Below, piece after piece: positions 28,234-60,239 of a stretch of 64,000 bases of DNA. The DNA lies in the NCBI RefSeq assembly GCF_016026235.1, contig NZ_CP065613.1; one strand, given 5' to 3'. This DNA is from Escherichia coli. GTDB taxonomy: Bacteria > Pseudomonadota > Gammaproteobacteria > Enterobacterales > Enterobacteriaceae. Made by a program: the position numbers and the translations under genes. The notes beneath the pieces are model-generated. The model was given only the letters and a program-made list of their open reading frames with translations. It did no database searches and had not been told where the DNA came from. Within the stretch, counting starts at the first letter, position 1, and the number at the start of each line of letters is the position of its first letter.

Positions 28234-28916
28234 TCTGCGGCATCTCCATAAACAGAAGGCAAGTTAAGTTCTCTTGCACCCTGCGCGCTATTTATCCATG
28301 CATACATTTCAGCGTTGCTGTGAATTGCCAGTCGACGCATCGCACTGTTTTTTTGGGCGCTGATAGTTTTATTACTTTTCTTAAGCAACGAAGCTATCTG
28401 GTTGATGCCCCATCCTTTACCTAATAGCCGCAGTACCTTGCGCTCTGAAAGAGTGAGAATGACGGAGCGATAGCTAAAATCATGAGTTTCAGTCATTGCC
28501 GGAGAGGTCAGCATGGCGCTGATACGCTCTGCGTGCGTATTGCCGGAACGTACGGTCTTGACCAGATTCTCAATGGGTTCAACATCAGACAATAACGTCG
28601 CCGTAGGGCACATGAGCAATTCTACTGCCTGGGAATACCAGGAGCGTGACACCATGAAAACCCAGTGAATTTCCCGATATTGTGAGATTAAAGAATAATA
28701 ATGTTCACAAACAGAACGTGGATCTTCACTTTCACCGGCTAAATCAGCAATGACTAATCCGGAACGACGTAATTGTAATAAGGTAAGGTCCTCCGCAGAG
28801 GCGCTGGATATTATTTCATATTCAGGGAAGTGAGTCCTCATGACCTCTTTTAACCCTGCTTGCATAACAGGTATTTTACTGATAAAAATTCCATTTTTGC
28901 AGCATCCTGGCAACAT
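28191..28916 (-). CDS. yjjQ: LuxR-type transcriptional regulator YjjQ
   Basis: 241 aa, overlaps bglJ start, AT-rich upstream region. Confidence 0.85.
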
Positions 28917-29534
28917 ATTTCCTCCACATCCACTGTCTAAAAATCATGATGGTTTATTCAGGATATTCATTCCTTAAATGTTTCCAGCAAATTAATAGAT
29001 TAAGCGAATAAATTATCCTTAGCATTCACTTTCATATCAGCATACTCCTGCTGCACAACAACTCCACTGCGTGTGTCAGAAGGTTAGCATCAAATGATAA
29101 CCTGGTGAAATAGCCTGGAGACATTTAAAATATCTACATTAAGTTGTTAGGAATACTTAATGAAAAACAGAAATCACATTCATTTAATTTATAATTAAAT
29201 GATATCCCTTCCCGCAGAATGAAAAATCACACAACCAATATTTATTCAATGAAATCTGATGGTTTTAACTTGTTAACATTAAAAAACGTGCCCGGTTATC
29301 TATTATCCTGATTCGTAAAGGCCAAACAATAAATTCATTATAGTGATAATATTCATGTGATAGTTTGTTTGCGGCGAGAGATAATTCGCTTTTTATCACC
29401 GAGCTTGTCCCGATAACCAGGATTAATCAGCGCAATTTTGATCTTAACCTACCGCAAAACAACCGTGCTTCATGATACAAATGGATTCTCATTATCTGAA
29501 CAATACGCAGCACGTCTATGACAAAGGGCGAGTT

Positions 29535-43519: not shown

Positions 43520-44476
43520 ATGAACCCGATTGCAGTTACCCTACTCACCGGTTTTTTAGGCGCGGGAAAAACCACCCTGCTGCGCCATATTCTTAACGAA
43601 CAACACGGCTACAAGATTGCCGTGATTGAAAACGAATTCGGCGAAGTCTCCGTTGATGATCAACTAATTGGCGACCGCGCCACGCAGATCAAAACGCTGA
43701 CCAACGGCTGCATCTGCTGTTCGCGCTCCAACGAGCTGGAAGACGCACTACTCGACCTGCTGGATAATCTCGACAAGGGCAATATTCAGTTTGACCGTCT
43801 GGTCATTGAATGCACCGGCATGGCCGATCCCAGCCCGATTATTCAGACCTTTTTCTCCCATGAGATTTTATGCCAGCGTTACCTGCTGGACGGTGTGATT
43901 GCGCTGGTGGATGCGGTACATGCCGACGAGCAGATGAACCAGTTCACCATCGCTCAGTCCCAGGTTGGCTACGCCGACCGTATTCTGCTGACCAAAACCG
44001 ACGTCGCAGGCGAAGCAGAAAAACTGCGTGAACGCCTGGCGCGCATCAACGCCCGTGCACCGGTCTACACCGTCACCCACGGCGACATCGACCTGGGCCT
44101 GCTGTTCAACACCAACGGTTTTATGCTGGAAGAGAACGTCGTCAGCACCAAACCGCGTTTCCACTTTATCGCGGATAAACAAAACGATATTTCGTCGATT
44201 GTGGTGGAACTGGATTACCCGGTAGATATCAGCGAAGTTTCCCGGGTGATGGAAAACCTGCTTCTGGAATCGGCAGATAAACTGCTGCGTTACAAAGGGA
44301 TGCTGTGGATTGACGGCGAACCTAACCGCCTGCTGTTCCAGGGCGTCCAGCGCCTCTACAGCGCCGACTGGGACCGCCCGTGGGGCGATGAAAAACCGCA
44401 TAGCACAATGGTGTTTATCGGGATTCAGTTGCCGGAGGAAGAGATTCGGGCAGCGTTTGCGGGGTTGAGGAAGTAA
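43520..44476 (+). CDS. yjiA: CobW/P47K-family GTPase YjiA
   Basis: 318 aa from MNPIAVTLLTGFLGAGKTTLL; P-loop and CxCC motif. Confidence 0.9.
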   Translation: MNPIAVTLLTGFLGAGKTTLLRHILNEQHGYKIAVIENEFGEVSVDDQLIGDRATQIKTLTNGCICCSRSNELEDALLDLLDNLDKGNIQFDRLVIECTGMADPSPIIQTFFSHEILCQRYLLDGVIALVDAVHADEQMNQFTIAQSQVGYADRILLTKTDVAGEAEKLRERLARINARAPVYTVTHGDIDLGLLFNTNGFMLEENVVSTKPRFHFIADKQNDISSIVVELDYPVDISEVSRVMENLLLESADKLLRYKGMLWIDGEPNRLLFQGVQRLYSADWDRPWGDEKPHSTMVFIGIQLPEEEIRAAFAGLRK

Positions 44477-44487
44477 TTTTGGATGAT

Positions 44488-44518
44488 GGCCGCCATGGGG
44501 CGGCCTGAATTATTTTTT
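44488..44518. terminator. convergent stem-loop between yjiA and brnA
   Basis: ggccgcc-atgg-ggcggcc followed by tgaattatttttt on the plus strand. Confidence 0.4.
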
Positions 44519-44812
44519 GTTCTGATCGCGCAGCATCGCTTCACGTAAAATTGCGTTCAGGCGAGTTTGATAGCCTTTACCTGGTCGCTTCAACCATTCC
44601 ATCACATCAGCATCAATACGCACCGAAGCCTGAGTTTTCAATGGCCGATAAAACTTACCGCGTTCGGCGTTAGACCATTGCTCATCGCTGGAAGGTGGGA
44701 TATCACTGTAATCAATATCTTCGTCGGATTTATTCGCCAGCGCCTTCAGTTCGGCCTCATGCTGCACATCGAGTGTAGAGGAGGTCCCTCGTTTATGTTT
44801 AACCATGCTCAT
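44510..44812 (-). CDS. BrnA-like antitoxin (ribbon-helix-helix, COG3514-type)
   Basis: about 100 aa from MSMVKHKRG...; C-terminal SVRIDADVMEWLKRPGKGYQTRLNAILREAM is typical of BrnA; start 8 bp after the BrnT stop. Confidence 0.7.
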   Translation of the reverse strand: MSMVKHKRGTSSTLDVQHEAELKALANKSDEDIDYSDIPPSSDEQWSNAERGKFYRPLKTQASVRIDADVMEWLKRPGKGYQTRLNAILREAMLRDQNKK

Positions 44813-45086
44813 AGCGATTCCTCTCTTTACGATCTGCTTTTCGTGCACTGATGATTCGAATAATTTCATTTCCGCTTTCGAAACGGATGGTATGCGCAAC
44901 CAGAATAACCACGATGCCGTAAACCAGGCCGATTGTCTGCCAGCGATACTCACCGTTTTCTATGCGTTCTTGCTGTGACAAATGTTGTGGATCATCAAAC
45001 AATAACACCGCATCTTCAAAGCGGATGCCATGTTTCACCCGATTACTTTTGGCCTTGTTTTCATCCCATTCAAACTCCATTGGCAT
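44799..45086 (-). CDS. BrnT-like toxin (DUF497 / COG2929 ribonuclease type)
   Basis: MPMEFEWDENKAKSNRVKHGIRFEDAVLLFDDP...IRIISARKADRKERNRYE; DUF497 hallmarks FEWDxxKAxxNxxKHG and IRIISARKA; start codon uncertain (45080-45113). Confidence 0.7.
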   Translation of the reverse strand: MPMEFEWDENKAKSNRVKHGIRFEDAVLLFDDPQHLSQQERIENGEYRWQTIGLVYGIVVILVAHTIRFESGNEIIRIISARKADRKERNRYEHG

Positions 45087-45284
45087 AATTGCCATCCCTA
45101 ATTGTATATACAAAAATGTATCTACAATTATTCTGCAATTATAGCGTTGATGTTGGAAATAGCATCACGTTTCGAATAATCAACCATAAAATTGACAATG
45201 AGTAAGTTGGACTTGATTCATCCAATAGAATTTCTCGCCTGACATGGCACACTAAACACCTCGCTGTCGGGTAATGACTCCAAC

Positions 45285-45787
45285 TTACTGATAGTGTTTT
45301 ATGTTCAGATAATGCCCGATGACCTTGTCATGCAGCTCCACCGATTTTGAGAACGACAGTGACTTCCGTCCCAGCCTTGCCAGATGTTGTCTCAGATTCA
45401 GATTATGTCGCTCAATGCGCTGAGTGTAACGCTTGCTGATAACGTGCAGCTTTCCCTTCAGGCGTGATTCATACAGCGGCCAGCCATCCGTCATCTATAC
45501 TACGACCTCAAAGGCCGACAGCAGGCTCAGAAGACGCTCCAGTGTGGCCAGAGTGCGTTCACCGAAGACGTGGCCACAACCGTCCTCCGTATCCTGTCAT
45601 ACGCGTAAAACAGCCAGCGCTGACGTGATTTAGCACCGACGTAGCCCCAATGTTCGTCCATTTCAGCGCAGACAATCACATCACTGCCCGGTTGTATGCG
45701 CGAGGTTACCGACTGCGGCCTGAGTTTTTTAAGTGACGTAAAACCGTGTTGAGGCCAACGCCCATAATGCGTGCACTGGCGCGACAT
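45285..45787 (-). pseudogene. insB: IS1 insB, frameshifted and interrupted
   Basis: split into 86-aa and 69-aa ORF fragments; alignment to copy 1 shows a 1-bp deletion (cgtggccacaaccg vs cgtgcgcaacaaccg) and a stop (ctatactac). Confidence 0.7.
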
Positions 45788-45981
45788 CCGACGCCATTCA
45801 TGGCCATATCAATGATTTTCTGGTGCGTACCGGGCTGAGAGGCGGTGTAAGTGAACTGCAGTTGCCATGTTTTACGGCAATGAGAGCAGAGATAGCGCTG
45901 ATGTCCGGCAGTGCTTTTGCCGTTACGCACCACGCCTTCAGTAGCGGAGCAGGAAGCACATCTGATGGAAATGGAAGCCAC
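45706..45981 (-). CDS. insA: IS1 InsA (variant)
   Basis: 91 aa [37 protein letters not shown]. Confidence 0.8.
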
Positions 45982-46295
45982 GCAAGCACCTTAAAATCAC
46001 CATCATACACTAAATCAGTAAGTTGGCAGCATTACCAAATTTTAATTACACTTAAGGTGTATATTTTCTATGCAAGCCATCAATTAAAGAGGTGTAATGT
46101 TCTGATGACTATTTGTAATCGTTATACATTCTGACCTGGAGTCAGAAGGTATTTCTCTGTCTGTGTATTCGCAGGCAGTGTGGTTGATTACATGAAATTC
46201 AGTACATTTGTCCTTCTCGCCTGCCTTTCGTCATTACCGACGGTATTGAATTTCGTTTTCCCCATTGGGGTTCTCCGGACAAGGAGTTGTTTGTT

Positions 46296-47528
46296 ATGCC
46301 ACGTTTTTTTGCCCGCCATGCCGCCACGCTGTTTTTCCCGATGGCGTTGATTTTGTATGACTTTGCTGCGTATCTGTCGACGGACCTGATCCAGCCAGGG
46401 ATCATTAATGTGGTCCGTGATTTTAATGCCGATGTCAGTCTGGCCCCGGCTGCCGTCAGTCTCTATCTCGCTGGAGGCATGGCATTGCAGTGGCTGCTGG
46501 GGCCGCTTTCCGACAGGGTTGGCCGCAGGCCGGTGCTGATTACCGGGGCGCTAATATTTACCCTTGCCTGCGCTGCGACAATGTTCACAACGTCTATGAC
46601 ACAGTTTCTTATCGCGCGTGCAATTCAGGGCACCAGTATCTGTTTTATTGCCACCGTTGGTTATGTCACGGTGCAGGAGGCGTTCGGACAGACAAAAGGG
46701 ATCAAGTTGATGGCGATTATCACCTCCATCGTACTGATTGCGCCGATTATTGGCCCGCTTTCCGGCGCAGCTCTGATGCACTTTGTGCACTGGAAAGTCC
46801 TTTTTGCCATCATTGCGGTTATGGGTTTTATCTCATTTGTTGGCTTACTGCTGGCGATGCCAGAGACGGTGAAGCGCGGCGCGGTTCCATTTAGCGCCAA
46901 AAGCGTCTTGCGCGATTTTCGTAATGTCTTTTGCAATCGGCTGTTCCTCTTTGGCGCAGCAACCATCTCTTTAAGCTATATCCCCATGATGAGTTGGGTG
47001 GCTGTCTCGCCGGTGATCCTGATCGACGCGGGCGGCTTAACAACTTCGCAGTTCGCCTGGACACAGGTTCCGGTGTTCGGCGCGGTGATTGTCGCGAATG
47101 CCATCGTGGCGCGTTTCGTTAAAGATCCGACCGAACCGCGCTTTATCTGGCGTGCCGTACCCCTTCAACTGGTTGGCCTCGCGCTGTTGATTATCGGCAA
47201 TCTGCTGTCACCGCACGTCTGGCTGTGGTCGGTGCTGGGCACCAGTCTGTATGCTTTCGGGATTGGTTTGATTTTCCCGACCTTATTCCGCTTTACGCTG
47301 TTTTCCAATAACTTACCGAAAGGGACCGTCTCCGCATCGCTGAATATGGTGATCCTGATGGTGATGTCTGTCTCGGTCGAAATCGGCCGCTGGCTGTGGT
47401 TTAACAGCGGTCGCTTGCCGTTTCATCTGTTAGCCGTTGTGGCAGGCGTTATCGTCGTTTTCACCCTGGCCGGATTGCTTAATCGCGTGCGCCAACATCA
47501 GGCTGCCGAGCTGGCGGAGGAGCGGTGA
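46296..47528 (+). CDS. mdtM: MFS multidrug efflux transporter MdtM
   Basis: 410 aa from [27 protein letters not shown]. Confidence 0.9.
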
Positions 47529-47568
47529 TTTTTGCGCGATCCTGCCGTCAGGCTCTATTCTTAACATT

Positions 47569-48849
47569 ATGAATAAACTCATTGAACTCAGACGCGCCAA
47601 AATGTTGGCGCTCTCTTTACTGCTTATCGCCGCTGCTACCTTTGTCGTTACGCTGTTTTTGCCGCCCAATTTTTGGGTGAGCGGCGTGAAGGCGATTGCT
47701 GAAGCGGCGATGGTCGGCGCGCTGGCGGACTGGTTTGCGGTGGTGGCGCTGTTTCGCCGCGTGCCGATTCCGATCATTTCTCGTCATACGGCGATTATTC
47801 CGCGTAATAAAGACCGGATTGGCGAAAATCTCGGCCAGTTCGTGCAGGAAAAATTTCTCGATACCCAATCGCTGGTGGCATTGATTCGACGTCACGAACC
47901 GGCGTTGTTGATTGGCAACTGGTTTAGTCAGCCAGAAAACGCCCGCCGCGTTGGTCAGCATCTGTTGCAGATCATGAGCGGTTTTCTTGAACTAACCGAT
48001 GATGCGCGTATTCAGCGCCTGCTTAAGCGCGCGGTCCACCGGGCGATTGATAAAGTCGATCTTTCTGGCACCAGTGCGTTGATGCTGGAGAGTATGACTA
48101 AAAACGATCGTCATCAGGTGCTGCTGGATACGCTGATCGCACAGTTGATCGCCCTTCTCCAGCGCGATAAATCGCGCAAGTTTATTGCCCAGCAAATTGT
48201 TCGCTGGCTGGAGAGCGAGCATCCACTGAAAGCCAAAATTTTGCCCACTGAATGGCTGGGCGAACATAGCGCGGAGTTGGTTTCTGACGCGGTGAATTCT
48301 TTGCTTGATGATATCAGCCGCGATCGTGCGCATCAGATCCGCCATGCGTTTGATCGCGCTACCTTCGCCCTGATCGAGAAACTGAAAAACGATCCGGAAA
48401 TGGCGGCGCGAGCCGATGCCGTAAAAAGCTATCTGAAAGAAGATGAAGCTTTTAACCGCTATCTCAGTGAATTGTGGGGGGATTTACGGGAATGGCTGAA
48501 AGCGGATATCAACAGTGAAGATTCTCGTGTGAAAGAACGTATCGCGCGGGCTGAACAATGGTTTGGCGAAACGTTAATTGCCGATGATGCCTTGCGGGCG
48601 TCGTTAAATGGTCATCTGGAACAAGCCGCACACCGCATTGCGCCTGAGTTTTCCGCATTCCTGACTCGCCATATCAGCGACACGGTAAAAAGCTGGGACG
48701 CACGGGATATGTCGCGGCAAATCGAGTTAAATATCGGCAAAGATCTCCAGTTTATCCGTGTCAACGGTACGCTGGTTGGCGGTTGTATTGGACTTATTTT
48801 GTATTTGCTGTCGCAGCTCCCGGCCTTGTTCCCCCTCGGCAATTTATAG
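47569..48849 (+). CDS. yjiN: inner membrane protein YjiN (DUF445)
   Basis: 426 aa from [25 protein letters not shown]. Confidence 0.85.
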
Positions 48850-48964
48850 AAATCCATGAAAAACTAAGTGGCTAACCGCGAGAGAGATCAAATAAACCAC
48901 ACTAAAAGAATGGTAATAATGTGGCCTCTTTTCATTATCTCCCGTGGTACGGGGAAGGAAAATC

Positions 48965-52072
<3,108 letters not shown>

Positions 52073-56526: not shown

Positions 56527-57438
56527 ATGGATGACTGTGGTGCGGTTTTGCATAATATTGAAACTAAATGGCTTTATGATTTTCTGACCCTGGAAAAATG
56601 CCGCAATTTTTCCCAGGCAGCAGTCAGTCGCAACGTCTCGCAACCGGCATTCAGCCGCCGCATCCGTGCGCTGGAACAGGCGATTGGCGTTGAATTGTTT
56701 AACCGCCAGGTGACGCCGCTGCAACTCTCGGAACAAGGTAAAATATTCCATTCGCAGATCCGCCATCTGTTGCAACAGTTAGAGAGCAACCTTGCAGAAC
56801 TCCGTGGTGGCAGCGATTACGCGCAACGCAAAATTAAAATAGCCGCTGCACACTCTCTTTCCCTCGGGCTGTTACCGTCCATTATCAGCCAGATGCCGCC
56901 GCTCTTTACCTGGGCAATTGAAGCTATTGATGTCGATGAAGCGGTCGATAAACTGCGTGAAGGGCAAAGTGACTGTATTTTTTCCTTTCACGACGAAGAT
57001 TTGCTGGAAGCGCCGTTTGACCACATTCGCTTATTTGAATCTCAATTGTTCCCCGTTTGCGCCAGTGACGAACACGGAGAAGCACTTTTTAACCTCGCGC
57101 AGCCACACTTTCCGTTACTGAATTACAGCCGCAACTCCTACATGGGGCGATTGATTAATCGCACCCTGACGCGCCACAGTGAGTTAAGTTTCAGCACCTT
57201 TTTTGTCTCTTCGATGAGCGAGCTTTTAAAGCAGGTTGCCCTCGACGGCTGTGGGATTGCCTGGCTACCGGAATACGCCATCCAACAAGAAATTCGCAGC
57301 GGGCAGCTCGTTGTACTGAATCGGGACGAACTGGTGATCCCGATTCAGGCCTATGCATACCGGATGAATACCCGCATGAATCCAGTTGCCGAACGCTTCT
57401 GGCGTGAACTACGCGAGCTGGAGATTGTGCTTAGCTGA
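56527..57438 (+). CDS. hypT: LysR-type hypochlorite-responsive regulator HypT (YjiE)
   Basis: 303 aa, N-terminal LysR HTH. Confidence 0.88.
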
Positions 57439-57823
57439 CATTCTCCAGCGTCGCACTGCGCCAACCGCCATTATCCCAGACCAGATCAAACGTTAGCGAT
57501 TCATCGTCGTGATACAGCATTATCTCAAGGCTGATCGCCAGAGTGTGGCAGTACGCTTCTTTCAAATTAACCTGCAACGCCGCAATCCGTGGCTCATGAA
57601 ATAACAGTGCAGAACGCAGCTGACGGCAATACCAGCTCTGGAGATGTTTGTCGCTCGGGTTATGCACTTGCCACTCGGGCATGCCTGAAACAAGTAATGA
57701 CGGTAATGCCGAATGAGGAGAATTAAAAAGAGTGAGGAGATCGCTGCATACTGATTTACGCAGCGGTGACGTTTTATTGCCTGAAATTTCAGGTAAAACA
57801 GCCTGAAGTGATTGGCGCATCAT
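57431..57823 (-). CDS. iraD: anti-adaptor protein IraD
   Basis: 130 aa from [23 protein letters not shown]. Confidence 0.85.
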
Positions 57824-58494
57824 TTTGCGCACTCCTGACGTTTAGCAACATATGCGGCTTGCCCTGAACACCGGGCACCACTGTATTGATGCTCATTTTC
57901 CATAGCCATTCCCTTTTGTTCATTACATCCATGTCAGTCTGAGACAGGCCTGAATCCTGTCAGCAAAGTATAAAACCTTACTTGCCTATGAATATCTACT
58001 GACTTTTCAGGAAAAAAGTCATGATTTGATAAAAATCATCAAACTCAAAAAAAAACCGCTAGTATATTCTGAATATTCCGAATAGTTACGTAGATGAAAA
58101 TACTTGTCACCACCGCTACTTAATTCCGGTGGGAAATTATTTATTTCCGCATAATCAGCCATGTATTATTTAAAACAATTAGTTTGTAAATAATATAAAT
58201 TGATAACATATCAAATACATCAAAAATACCATTCACAGGCATTATTAATATAGACATCAATATAGCAACATCAAATTCCAATTAGTAATAAGATATGCTT
58301 TTAAATTGCATGCAAATAATTTTAAATGAGCGTTTTTTGATACTTTAGAGTGTTTCCCACCATTTAATATCACTGTGTAGAGTTGATATCACTACAACAG
58401 AAACATGCATGTCATTTGTTTACTTCTCTTTTTACTACAGAAAAATTTATCTATTTTTCTAAGCATCAGTGAAATACTCATAAAGGTAACTATT

Positions 58495-59325
58495 ATGTCT
58501 ATGCCATTAAGCAATGCCCTTCAGAGTCAAATTATTACAGATAATCACTTCCTTCATCATCCAAAAGTCGACAGTGAGTTAACACGTAAACATGAACGTG
58601 CACGCATGGATACGGAAAATATCTATCTTCCGCCTCTTGCTCGTGGCAATAACCATAATTACGATGGAAAAAGCGTTGTCGAAATTAGAAAACTTGATAT
58701 TAGTAAAGAGTCCTGGCCATTTAATTATGTGACAGAAACATGCAGAGAATTCAATGGTATTACAACAACAGGACGTATGCTCTATCGAAACTTGAAAATC
58801 ACCTCAGCTTTAGACGAAATATATGGTGGTATATGTAAAAAGGCGCATGCTGCCACAGAGTTAGCAGAAGGATTACGGCTAAATTTATTTATGAAAAGCC
58901 CTTTCGATCCTGTTGAGGACTATACAGTTCATGAAATAACATTAGGCCCTGGTTGCAATGTTCCTGGTTATGCCGGAACCACGATAGGATATATTTCAAC
59001 CCTTCCAGCTTCTCAGGCAAAAAGATGGACCAATGAGCAGCCAAGGATTGATATCTATATTGATCAGATAATGACGGTAACAGGGGTAGCAAATTCTTCC
59101 GGATTCGCCCTTGCCGCATTACTTAATGCTAATATTGAGTTGGGTAATGACCCAATAATTGGTATAGAAGCCTATCCCGGTACCGCGGAGATCCATGCAA
59201 AAATGGGATATAAAGTTATCCTGGGTGATGAAAATGCACCACTCAAACGTATGACTCTGCAACCGTCATCTCTTCCAGAACTGTTTGAATTAAAAAATGG
59301 TGAATGGAATTATATTGGTAAATAA
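58495..59325 (+). CDS. yjiC: uncharacterised protein YjiC
   Basis: 276 aa from MSMPLSNALQSQIITDNHF, AT-rich gene with long AT-rich upstream region. Confidence 0.8.
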   Translation: MSMPLSNALQSQIITDNHFLHHPKVDSELTRKHERARMDTENIYLPPLARGNNHNYDGKSVVEIRKLDISKESWPFNYVTETCREFNGITTTGRMLYRNLKITSALDEIYGGICKKAHAATELAEGLRLNLFMKSPFDPVEDYTVHEITLGPGCNVPGYAGTTIGYISTLPASQAKRWTNEQPRIDIYIDQIMTVTGVANSSGFALAALLNANIELGNDPIIGIEAYPGTAEIHAKMGYKVILGDENAPLKRMTLQPSSLPELFELKNGEWNYIGK

Positions 59326-59425
59326 CTACCAGGAAGAATGAGTACTAACATTCAGGTTATACAGATAGCTAAACAATCCCCTGCAATTTACAAAGTAATA
59401 CTCATTGCGACTTCTTAATTTAAGA

Positions 59426-59462
59426 AAGCGCAAGGAACGTTTACCCTTGCGCTTATTATAAT
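59426..59462. terminator. bidirectional stem-loop terminator between yjiC and uxuR
   Basis: aagcgcaagg-aacgtttac-ccttgcgctt with T/A-rich runs on both sides. Confidence 0.5.
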
Positions 59463-59465
59463 AAG

Positions 59466-60239
59466 TCAGGCGTCGACTTTATCCAGCGGCCATGAATCAA
59501 ACAGATAGCCATCAAAATAAATATCGTCAACGTTCGAGAATTCCAGCAGACGTTGCTTAACGTTTTCCAGATGCTGCCACATTGCCAGCTTCGCCGCTCG
59601 GGCATCTTTTTTGATTAACGCGGCGAGGATCTGTTTGTGATCGCCCAACCACTCTTTGCGATACAGGCTGTCATCCAGATGGCTGTGCAACTGGATCCAC
59701 ATTGGATTGTTTTCCCGCCACTGCCAGGACTGACGGAACAGCTCCACCAGCATGCTGTTATGCGTTGCTTCGGCAATAGCGAGATGGAACTGCATGTCAC
59801 CGCTTTCGCTGCTGCCCGGCGCACTGGAAGCCAGTTCACGCTCTTCCAGTTGCAATGCCTGACGCATTTTGACGATATCTTCGCGGGTAGCCTGCAGGGC
59901 GGCAAACTCGGCGATGTTGCTCTCAAGAAGCTGTCGCGCCTGCAACAGCTCAAAAGGACCCGCATCATTGCAAACGTTGGCATCCGGACTGTCTGTGTTG
60001 TGGCTGCCTGAGCTATCAAGAACATAGATACCGGCACCCCGGCGCACTTCCACCAGCCCTTTGATCTCCAGCATGATCAGCGCTTCACGTACCACCGTCC
60101 GCGTGACATCAAGCATTTCTGCAATTTCACGCTCCGGCGGCAACCGTTCGCCAGGATTGTACGGCGTCTTTATGATCAGATCGCGGATCATCGCCCCGAC
60201 TTCCTGGTAAGGTCTTTGCGCAGAGGTGGCAGATTTCAT
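59466..60239 (-). CDS. uxuR: GntR-family repressor UxuR
   Basis: 257 aa MKSATSAQRPYQEVGAMIRDLIIK. Confidence 0.9.
   Translation of the reverse strand: MKSATSAQRPYQEVGAMIRDLIIKTPYNPGERLPPEREIAEMLDVTRTVVREALIMLEIKGLVEVRRGAGIYVLDSSGSHNTDSPDANVCNDAGPFELLQARQLLESNIAEFAALQATREDIVKMRQALQLEERELASSAPGSSESGDMQFHLAIAEATHNSMLVELFRQSWQWRENNPMWIQLHSHLDDSLYRKEWLGDHKQILAALIKKDARAAKLAMWQHLENVKQRLLEFSNVDDIYFDGYLFDSWPLDKVDA

Follow-up and report, generated by a model that had tools for sequence, protein, structure and literature searches.

The 671-bp interval at positions 57824-58494 of a 64-kb stretch of Escherichia coli DNA (64,000 nucleotides, hereafter the window) is, with high confidence, the divergent iraD/yjiC regulatory region; the minus-strand promoter and leader of iraD take up most of it. 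The interval is bounded by the divergent start codons of iraD (57823, minus strand) and yjiC (58495, plus strand), and the open reading frames surrounding it are hypT, iraD, yjiC, uxuR, uxuB and uxuA of Escherichia coli. With 2.1 kb spanning the interval as query, matches were obtained in 5403 of the 5426 complete E. coli genomes, with a top match of 99.9% identity and K-12-type strains at ~98%, and annotated E. coli records that are 98-99.9% identical to the interval show the gene order iraD, idlP, ytiD, ytiC, yjiC. A first-pass annotation had described this DNA as non-coding and as preceding yjiC. Neither description holds: three small ORFs on the minus strand (idlP, ytiD and ytiC) are annotated at this site in RefSeq, also for K-12 MG1655, and the region is divergent, with at least 417 of its 671 bp belonging to the iraD leader.

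Compared with the K-12 iraD locus studied by Park et al. (2017) and Sass et al. (2021/2022), the interval has the same position, ~98% identity and the same order of elements, that is, P1, ytiC/ORF23, ytiD/ORF47, P2, the CsrA sites, idlP/ORF27 and the DnaA box, and it differs in being one base shorter (671 bp) and in two substitutions, S24L in YtiC and S17G in YtiD. The match in sequence to the K-12 region and the location of each published element were read directly from the window; promoter activity, CsrA coupling and H-NS occupancy are established in the literature. Because the present strain is not K-12, with ~2% sequence difference and one base missing relative to the K-12-type locus, regulation in this strain is transferred by homology. 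Promoters, uORFs, CsrA coupling, H-NS binding and foreign-like character have all been published before, and the locus is already known. As a discovery, the region is therefore of small importance, being real yet already explained. The use of the check lies in correcting the label "non-coding DNA upstream of yjiC", in resolving a quoted repeat into a HusR box plus codons, and in recording P1, ytiC and yjiC as one haplotype-specific block.

Two transcription start sites (TSSs) have been reported for iraD, at -417 (P1, induced in late log phase) and at -137 (P2, used in all growth phases), with both promoters responding to ppGpp, AZT and SspA, according to a preprint (bioRxiv 10.1101/2021.05.20.444958). 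Counting from the iraD ATG, position -417 corresponds to 58240, 7 nt downstream of a promoter-like TTGATG-16-TATATT that was found independently by a scan (P1, 58240..58274, minus strand; -35 TTGATG at 58274-58269, 16-bp spacer, -10 TATATT at 58252-58247). Likewise, position -137 corresponds to 57960, 7 nt downstream of TATACT (P2, 57960..57972, minus strand; -10 at 57972-57967), and the P2 transcript would start with ACAGGA, in agreement with the published spacing of just 3 nt ahead of the first GGA (PMC5574718). P2 is kept in an alignment of six haplotypes. Luciferase and lacZ fusions are active (PMC5574718 and bioRxiv 10.1101/2021.05.20.444958), and AZT has been found to induce ytiC 260-fold, making it the most induced gene in the genome, ytiD 33-fold, idlP 18-fold, iraD 14-fold and yjiC 11-fold. 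In the mechanism proposed here, late log phase, ppGpp and replication stress would induce P1 (TSS 58240), and P1 and P2 (TSS 57960) would give rise to leaders of 417 and 137 nt, respectively.

Both leaders would contain idlP (ORF27; 57820..57903, minus strand), a 27-codon uORF annotated by RefSeq as the iraD leader peptide, whose stop codon and the start codon of iraD overlap in an ATGA. Translation of idlP is coupled to that of iraD via these overlapping codons (PMC5574718), and the ORF is intact in 6/6 aligned haplotypes, including those of E. albertii and of the yjiC-less allele described below. The published CsrA sites, at -78/-77, -90..-84, -112..-103 and 3 nt after the P2 TSS (PMC5574718), land on GGA motifs of the window sequence (BS4, BS3, BS2 and BS1; 57900..57957, minus strand), with GGA sites over the idlP Shine-Dalgarno sequence and start codon, and the GGA is conserved at BS2, BS3 and BS4 in all six haplotypes. 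The ATGA overlap, the GGA motifs over the uORF Shine-Dalgarno sequence and start, and their conservation are the features of the CsrA-idlP-iraD uORF-coupling leader, from which we found no difference, this locus being the type example itself.

Two binding sites for DNA-binding proteins fall within the same region. A pattern search located the DnaA box TTTTCCATA at 57896..57904 (plus strand; -81 relative to iraD), sharing bases with both the start codon of idlP and CsrA site BS4. The box was described by means of electrophoretic mobility shift assays and box mutants in the preprint (bioRxiv 10.1101/2021.05.20.444958), but DnaA ChIP-seq detected no in vivo binding at iraD (PMC11317965), and direct control of iraD by DnaA is therefore disputed. 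The second is the HusR (YnfL) box CCGCTAGTATATTCTG at 58056..58071 (plus strand), an exact match to the 16-bp site identified by gSELEX for idlP-iraD in a 2026 study (PMC12844172); a single exact match occurs in the window, as compared to 0.01 expected by chance. In the HusR study, iraD was not among the genes shown to be activated in vivo (PMC12844172). This box lies inside a sequence, aaaaaaaaccgctagtatattctgaatattccgaat, that had been quoted in the first-pass annotation as an example of short repeats and that we could break down into an A9 run (58047-58055), the HusR box and a 9-bp tandem duplication encoding YSEYSEY in ytiD.

Upstream of P2, the long leader would additionally be translated at ytiC/ORF23 and ytiD/ORF47, without effect on iraD. 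The RefSeq-annotated ytiD (ORF47; 58019..58162, minus strand; 47 aa) lies in the P1 leader and holds the A9 run and the 9-bp tandem repeat, (YSE)2; it is expressed as a lacZ fusion and has no effect on iraD (PMC5574718). In the six-haplotype alignment, ytiD carries an internal stop in one lineage (L008), and neither E. albertii nor the yjiC-less allele has a ytiD. The RefSeq-annotated ytiC (b4720; 58141..58242, minus strand; 33 aa) matches the Pfam family PF23685 (YtiC) with 88.5 bits, and its ORF persists in E. coli as well as in two related lineages, not in E. albertii. ORF23 of Park et al. is the ytiC frame starting from an internal Met codon at 58209, and its lacZ fusion is likewise expressed without an effect on iraD (PMC5574718); a 33-aa product of the same frame is among newly identified small proteins (PMC6001520). 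Since the published P1 start coincides with the G of the annotated ytiC ATG (58242-58240) and so truncates this codon, only an internal-Met product or a leaderless variant seems possible from P1; the product may be one of 22 aa beginning at the internal Met (58209) or may come from a leaderless mRNA. Among the NCBIfam models, none matched YtiC, YtiD, IdlP or YjiC.

The gene served by this leader, iraD (57431..57823, minus strand), encodes a 130-aa anti-adaptor that stabilizes RpoS and belongs to the GPW_gp25 fold family, as annotated by RefSeq in near-identical records. The NCBIfam equivalog model for IraD, NF010726, scored 300.7 bits, and Pfam PF04965 was matched too. The protein resembles the phage baseplate gp25/type VI secretion TssE family (PF04965, E 3e-13; TIGR03357, below cutoff) and therefore appears, from this similarity, to be derived from a baseplate-wedge protein. 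Among the records retrieved, a 605-bp contig deposited as Bacillus coahuilensis m4-4 (NZ_ABFU01000118.1; L015) carries idlP, iraD and the end of hypT with 96-100% protein identity to E. coli, which almost certainly reflects contamination of that assembly by E. coli DNA. The record of the best-matching strain, NZ_CP025842 (L017), was used as a source of local annotation only; the window is not collinear with it over its full length, showing an offset of ~800 bp, and the yjiK-yjiN segment at ~44000-50000 of the window is reversed there, adjoining an IS1 pseudogene.

In base composition, the interval stands far apart from its surroundings. Its GC content is 32.0% over 671 bp vs 51.7% for the 64-kb window, only 0.57% of all 671-bp windows are equally low, and the window-wide minimum (30.0%, at 57958-58628) overlaps it. 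GC is unevenly distributed, with 44.9% in the iraD-proximal 176 bp and 27.5% in the distal 495 bp (58000 onward). Eight A/T runs of at least 5 bases occur, including the A9 at 58047-58055. A GC content far under the genome average for at least 300 bp, one criterion for H-NS-bound promoter islands, was found for the interval as a whole (32.0% over 671 bp) and for its distal part (27.5% over 495 bp). The adjacent yjiC gene has 39.5% GC, and the ORF containing it (58405-59325) has a GC3 of 0.29 vs 0.589±0.069 among 48 long ORFs in the window; scored against the window's own genes, its codon adaptation is the lowest of the 48. The first-pass annotation was accurate on all of these points, namely ~670 bp of very AT-rich DNA, A-tracts and a low-GC yjiC. 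It had also proposed GC-skew or codon-adaptation analysis, with a yjiC whose GC content and codon usage match the genome average as an objection; this objection falls away because both the GC3 and the codon usage of the gene deviate strongly from what is usual in the window.

With 34% GC over 28835-29505, the divergent yjjQ/yjjP intergenic region ranks second among the low-GC stretches of the window; it lies beside the low-GC genes yjjQ-bglJ, which we take to be under H-NS control. This spacer (~28917-29534) looks like another one of the H-NS type and shares with the iraD region its length, its divergent layout, a GC content far under that of the genome and low-GC flanking genes; the iraD region is set apart by a defined logic of stress induction, through ppGpp, replication stress and CsrA, and by uORFs that are translated. 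A further stretch of low GC (37.9%), at 9594-10264, lies at the locus of yjjJ, encoding a HipA-family toxin, once the ~800-bp offset to the reference record is applied.

yjiC (58495..59325, plus strand) encodes a DUF2686 protein (Pfam PF10887, E 1e-155) restricted to Escherichia: a word-indexed protein search returned homologs only from Escherichia and Shigella, and an exhaustive HMMER search across 1.84 billion representatives yielded nothing but fragments and close relatives, none of them from outside Escherichia. A phage search with YjiC gave no match, and a "plasmid" search gave nine records of 0.37-4.9 Mb, too large for ordinary plasmids. A PDB sequence search retrieved nothing below E 0.09, and an AlphaFold2 model based on an 8-sequence alignment was unusable (mean pLDDT 36.3). 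As to function, a single transposon mutant of yjiC with a biofilm defect has been described. The yjiC-proximal upstream DNA (58243..58494, plus strand; ~27% GC) lies within a published promoter island (PMC3661553), is conserved across E. coli lineages and has strongly diverged in E. albertii. Weak promoter-like matches are found at 58200-58227 and 58469-58496, and a putative yjiC promoter would be positioned in this DNA; our literature search found no TSS for yjiC. In two other loci (L006 and L008, 4001-4831), the yjiC protein is just 63-68% identical, with the flanks and the iraD-proximal spacer at 94-99% DNA identity. This hyper-divergence suggests several old alleles or diversifying selection. 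In some strains, IS1 is located between yjiC and uxuR (L010 2172-2869, strain AREA_R505), with a slightly longer yjiC frame, of 843 nt, there.

By conversion of coordinates between genome versions, the yjiC/iraD promoter island presumably spans about 57959-58485 of the window. The pair yjiC(-)/iraD(+) is one of 78 promoter islands compiled by Panyukov and Ozoline (2013), marked there as bound by H-NS according to the data of Kahramanoglou and of Oshima and tied to predicted foreign genes (PMC3661553). In addition, H-NS is reported to inhibit IraD expression (Battesti 2012, as restated in PMC6064147). These reports and a base composition typical of H-NS targets support the proposal of an H-NS-silenced type of locus made in the first-pass annotation. 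The distal part, with 27% GC, would be bound by H-NS, which would keep iraD, and presumably yjiC, at low levels in unstressed cells. An interpretation in terms of H-NS and foreign DNA is therefore correct in kind, yet was published over a decade ago.

A second proposal of the first-pass annotation was that of a curved-DNA silencer, and a corresponding alternative takes the region as an intrinsically curved element whose geometry, more than its AT content, nucleates silencing. Mean predicted curvature of the interval is in the top 1% of 671-bp windows, and 10-11-bp phasing of AA/TT (1.64 vs 0.67±0.28 in shuffles) was reached by only 0.7% of shuffles (p 0.007). However, both mean (p 0.16) and peak curvature (p 0.27), computed by a wedge model, were within the range of dinucleotide-preserving shuffles, eight other sites in the window have higher peaks, and the H-NS high-affinity motif TCGATAAATT has just one near-match in the interval, with 1 mismatch (58444-58453). 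Window-wide counts of this motif (83 vs 61±8) are uninformative for the interval. A dedicated curved silencer is not borne out by these comparisons, and we consider a role of geometry beyond AT content unlikely. Still less probable is a transcriptionally dead promoter island, that is, foreign AT-rich DNA that traps RNA polymerase and H-NS and yields abortive oligonucleotides, with no dedicated regulatory role. The listing of yjiC/iraD among the 78 islands with H-NS occupancy (PMC3661553), which are described as "transcriptionally defective", would fit such a reading, as would the 4 of 24 promoter-like matches of 20 kb that fall into the 671-bp interval, ~5x the mean density in a simple consensus scan. 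Yet the promoter-like count is not above that in dinucleotide-preserving shuffles (6 vs 7.0±2.7), so that match density follows AT content, and P1 and P2 are productive and inducible, P1 strongly so, as judged from luciferase and lacZ fusions and from the 260-fold response of ytiC to AZT. Moreover, full-length P1 and P2 transcripts under stress have already been reported.

The first-pass annotation had further raised the possibility of an uncharacterised regulatory RNA. The transcripts of the interval are instead the mapped P1 and P2 leaders of iraD, with tested uORFs and CsrA sites (PMC5574718). An Rfam scan of the interval at permissive E-values returned only two sub-threshold chance matches to eukaryotic families (E >0.3), and a terminator scan of the interval returned no terminator-like hairpin followed by a T-run. 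A variant of this idea, in which the ytiC region is an independent small or dual-function RNA freed by termination or processing before iraD, could account for the steep drop of AZT induction along the leader, from 260-fold at ytiC through 33-fold at ytiD and 18-fold at idlP to 14-fold at iraD, and for the folding of the 419-nt P1 leader, whose minimal free energy is lower than in shuffled sequences (-111.9 vs -93.8±5.4 kcal/mol, z -3.3). Such a gradient would arise in any case, since P2 contributes basal signal further downstream, and the fold excess is nothing unusual in a structured leader that carries CsrA sites. Together with the Rfam and terminator results, the absence of the segment from E. 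albertii and from the yjiC-less haplotype, and the lack of effect on iraD of start-to-stop mutants of the ytiC frame and of ytiD (PMC5574718), this makes an independent ytiC RNA the least credible of the alternatives and very improbable in itself. The preferred reading thus remains that of an iraD promoter and leader region embedded in H-NS-bound, AT-rich DNA.

Comparison across the genus indicated part of this region to vary between strains. A yjiC-less haplotype is present in 492 of the 5426 complete E. coli genomes (~9%), as well as in E. whittamii, Escherichia sp. E1V33 and two further Escherichia representative genomes. In a locus of this type (L003), homology to the window extends from within iraD to 58087 at 77% and resumes at the uxuR stop codon at 59466, with 150 unrelated bp (L003 3628-3777) replacing 1378 bp of the window. 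The BLAST breakpoints against L003 thereby delimit a haplotype-specific AT-rich block (58088..59465; 35.5% GC as measured over 58104-59424) that comprises P1, ytiC, the 5′ part of ytiD, yjiC and the 3′ spacer. The shared part outside the block holds P2 and idlP, the sites for CsrA, the DnaA box and the HusR-box region, and the iraD-proximal ~260 bp (P2, CsrA sites, idlP) are conserved in all six aligned haplotypes. The iraD gene of the yjiC-less haplotype has 79% nucleotide identity to that of the window, as distant as the E. albertii gene, and the flanking genes are at 95-98%, so either the polymorphism is old or recombination brought it in. The arrangement iadA-(hypT)-iraD-spacer-yjiC-uxuR is common to E. 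albertii and two other Escherichia lineages, with spacers of 654-672 bp and 31-32% GC, so the locus is old within the genus.

These observations bear on the remaining claim of the first-pass annotation, that the locus was horizontally acquired. A foreign-like character is upheld by base composition and by the published foreign-gene listing, but a recent event is not, given that E. albertii shares the arrangement and that the locus lacks mobility genes. Hence, we regard a recent horizontal origin of yjiC with its upstream DNA, as an islet placed beside iraD within E. coli, as unlikely. Such an islet would be consistent with the atypical composition and codon usage of yjiC, its patchy distribution among relatives, the restriction of the YjiC family to Escherichia, the absence of the 1.38-kb block from 9% of E. 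coli genomes and published foreign-gene predictions (PMC3661553). Against it stand the same arrangement in E. albertii and two other Escherichia lineages, the lack of phage copies and the size of the "plasmid" matches (0.37-4.9 Mb), and a yjiC-less iraD that is as divergent as that of E. albertii (79% at the nucleotide level) between flanks at 95-98%. Besides, a search of the locus for mobility hallmarks revealed no integrase or transposase, tRNA site or flanking direct repeats.

Within the preferred reading of an old divergent iraD/yjiC region, the breakpoints lead to one tentative proposal: P1 and ytiC might not be core E. coli sequence and instead travel with yjiC on the block, such that genomes devoid of the block keep only the P2/idlP leader and a divergent iraD. 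A limited literature search found no paper describing P1, ytiC and yjiC as parts of one haplotype-specific block. Should P1 account for the late-log induction and part of the replication-stress induction, this arm of RpoS stabilization would be strain-variable and gained or lost together with an orphan gene, yjiC, and the P1/ytiC/yjiC block could account for strain differences in RpoS control.

More generally, the surroundings of iraD form a small hotspot where genes are gained and lost. Between iadA and iraD, hypT is missing from E. albertii (L004 2817-2959) and from another locus (L013), and it is degraded in a further one (L012 2304-2629), and a pseudogene fragment of a PEP-binding protein lies between hypT and iraD in the yjiC-less locus (L003 2562-2933). 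At the other end of the region, a hairpin with a 10-bp stem (59426-59454; AAGCGCAAGG...CCTTGCGCTT) is located between the convergent yjiC and uxuR genes, where the terminator scan missed it because its loop measures 9 nt. Its counterpart in the yjiC-less haplotype (L003 3742-3765; GTGCAAAG...CTTTGCAC) shows paired changes on both arms, and the hairpin is probably the uxuR terminator.
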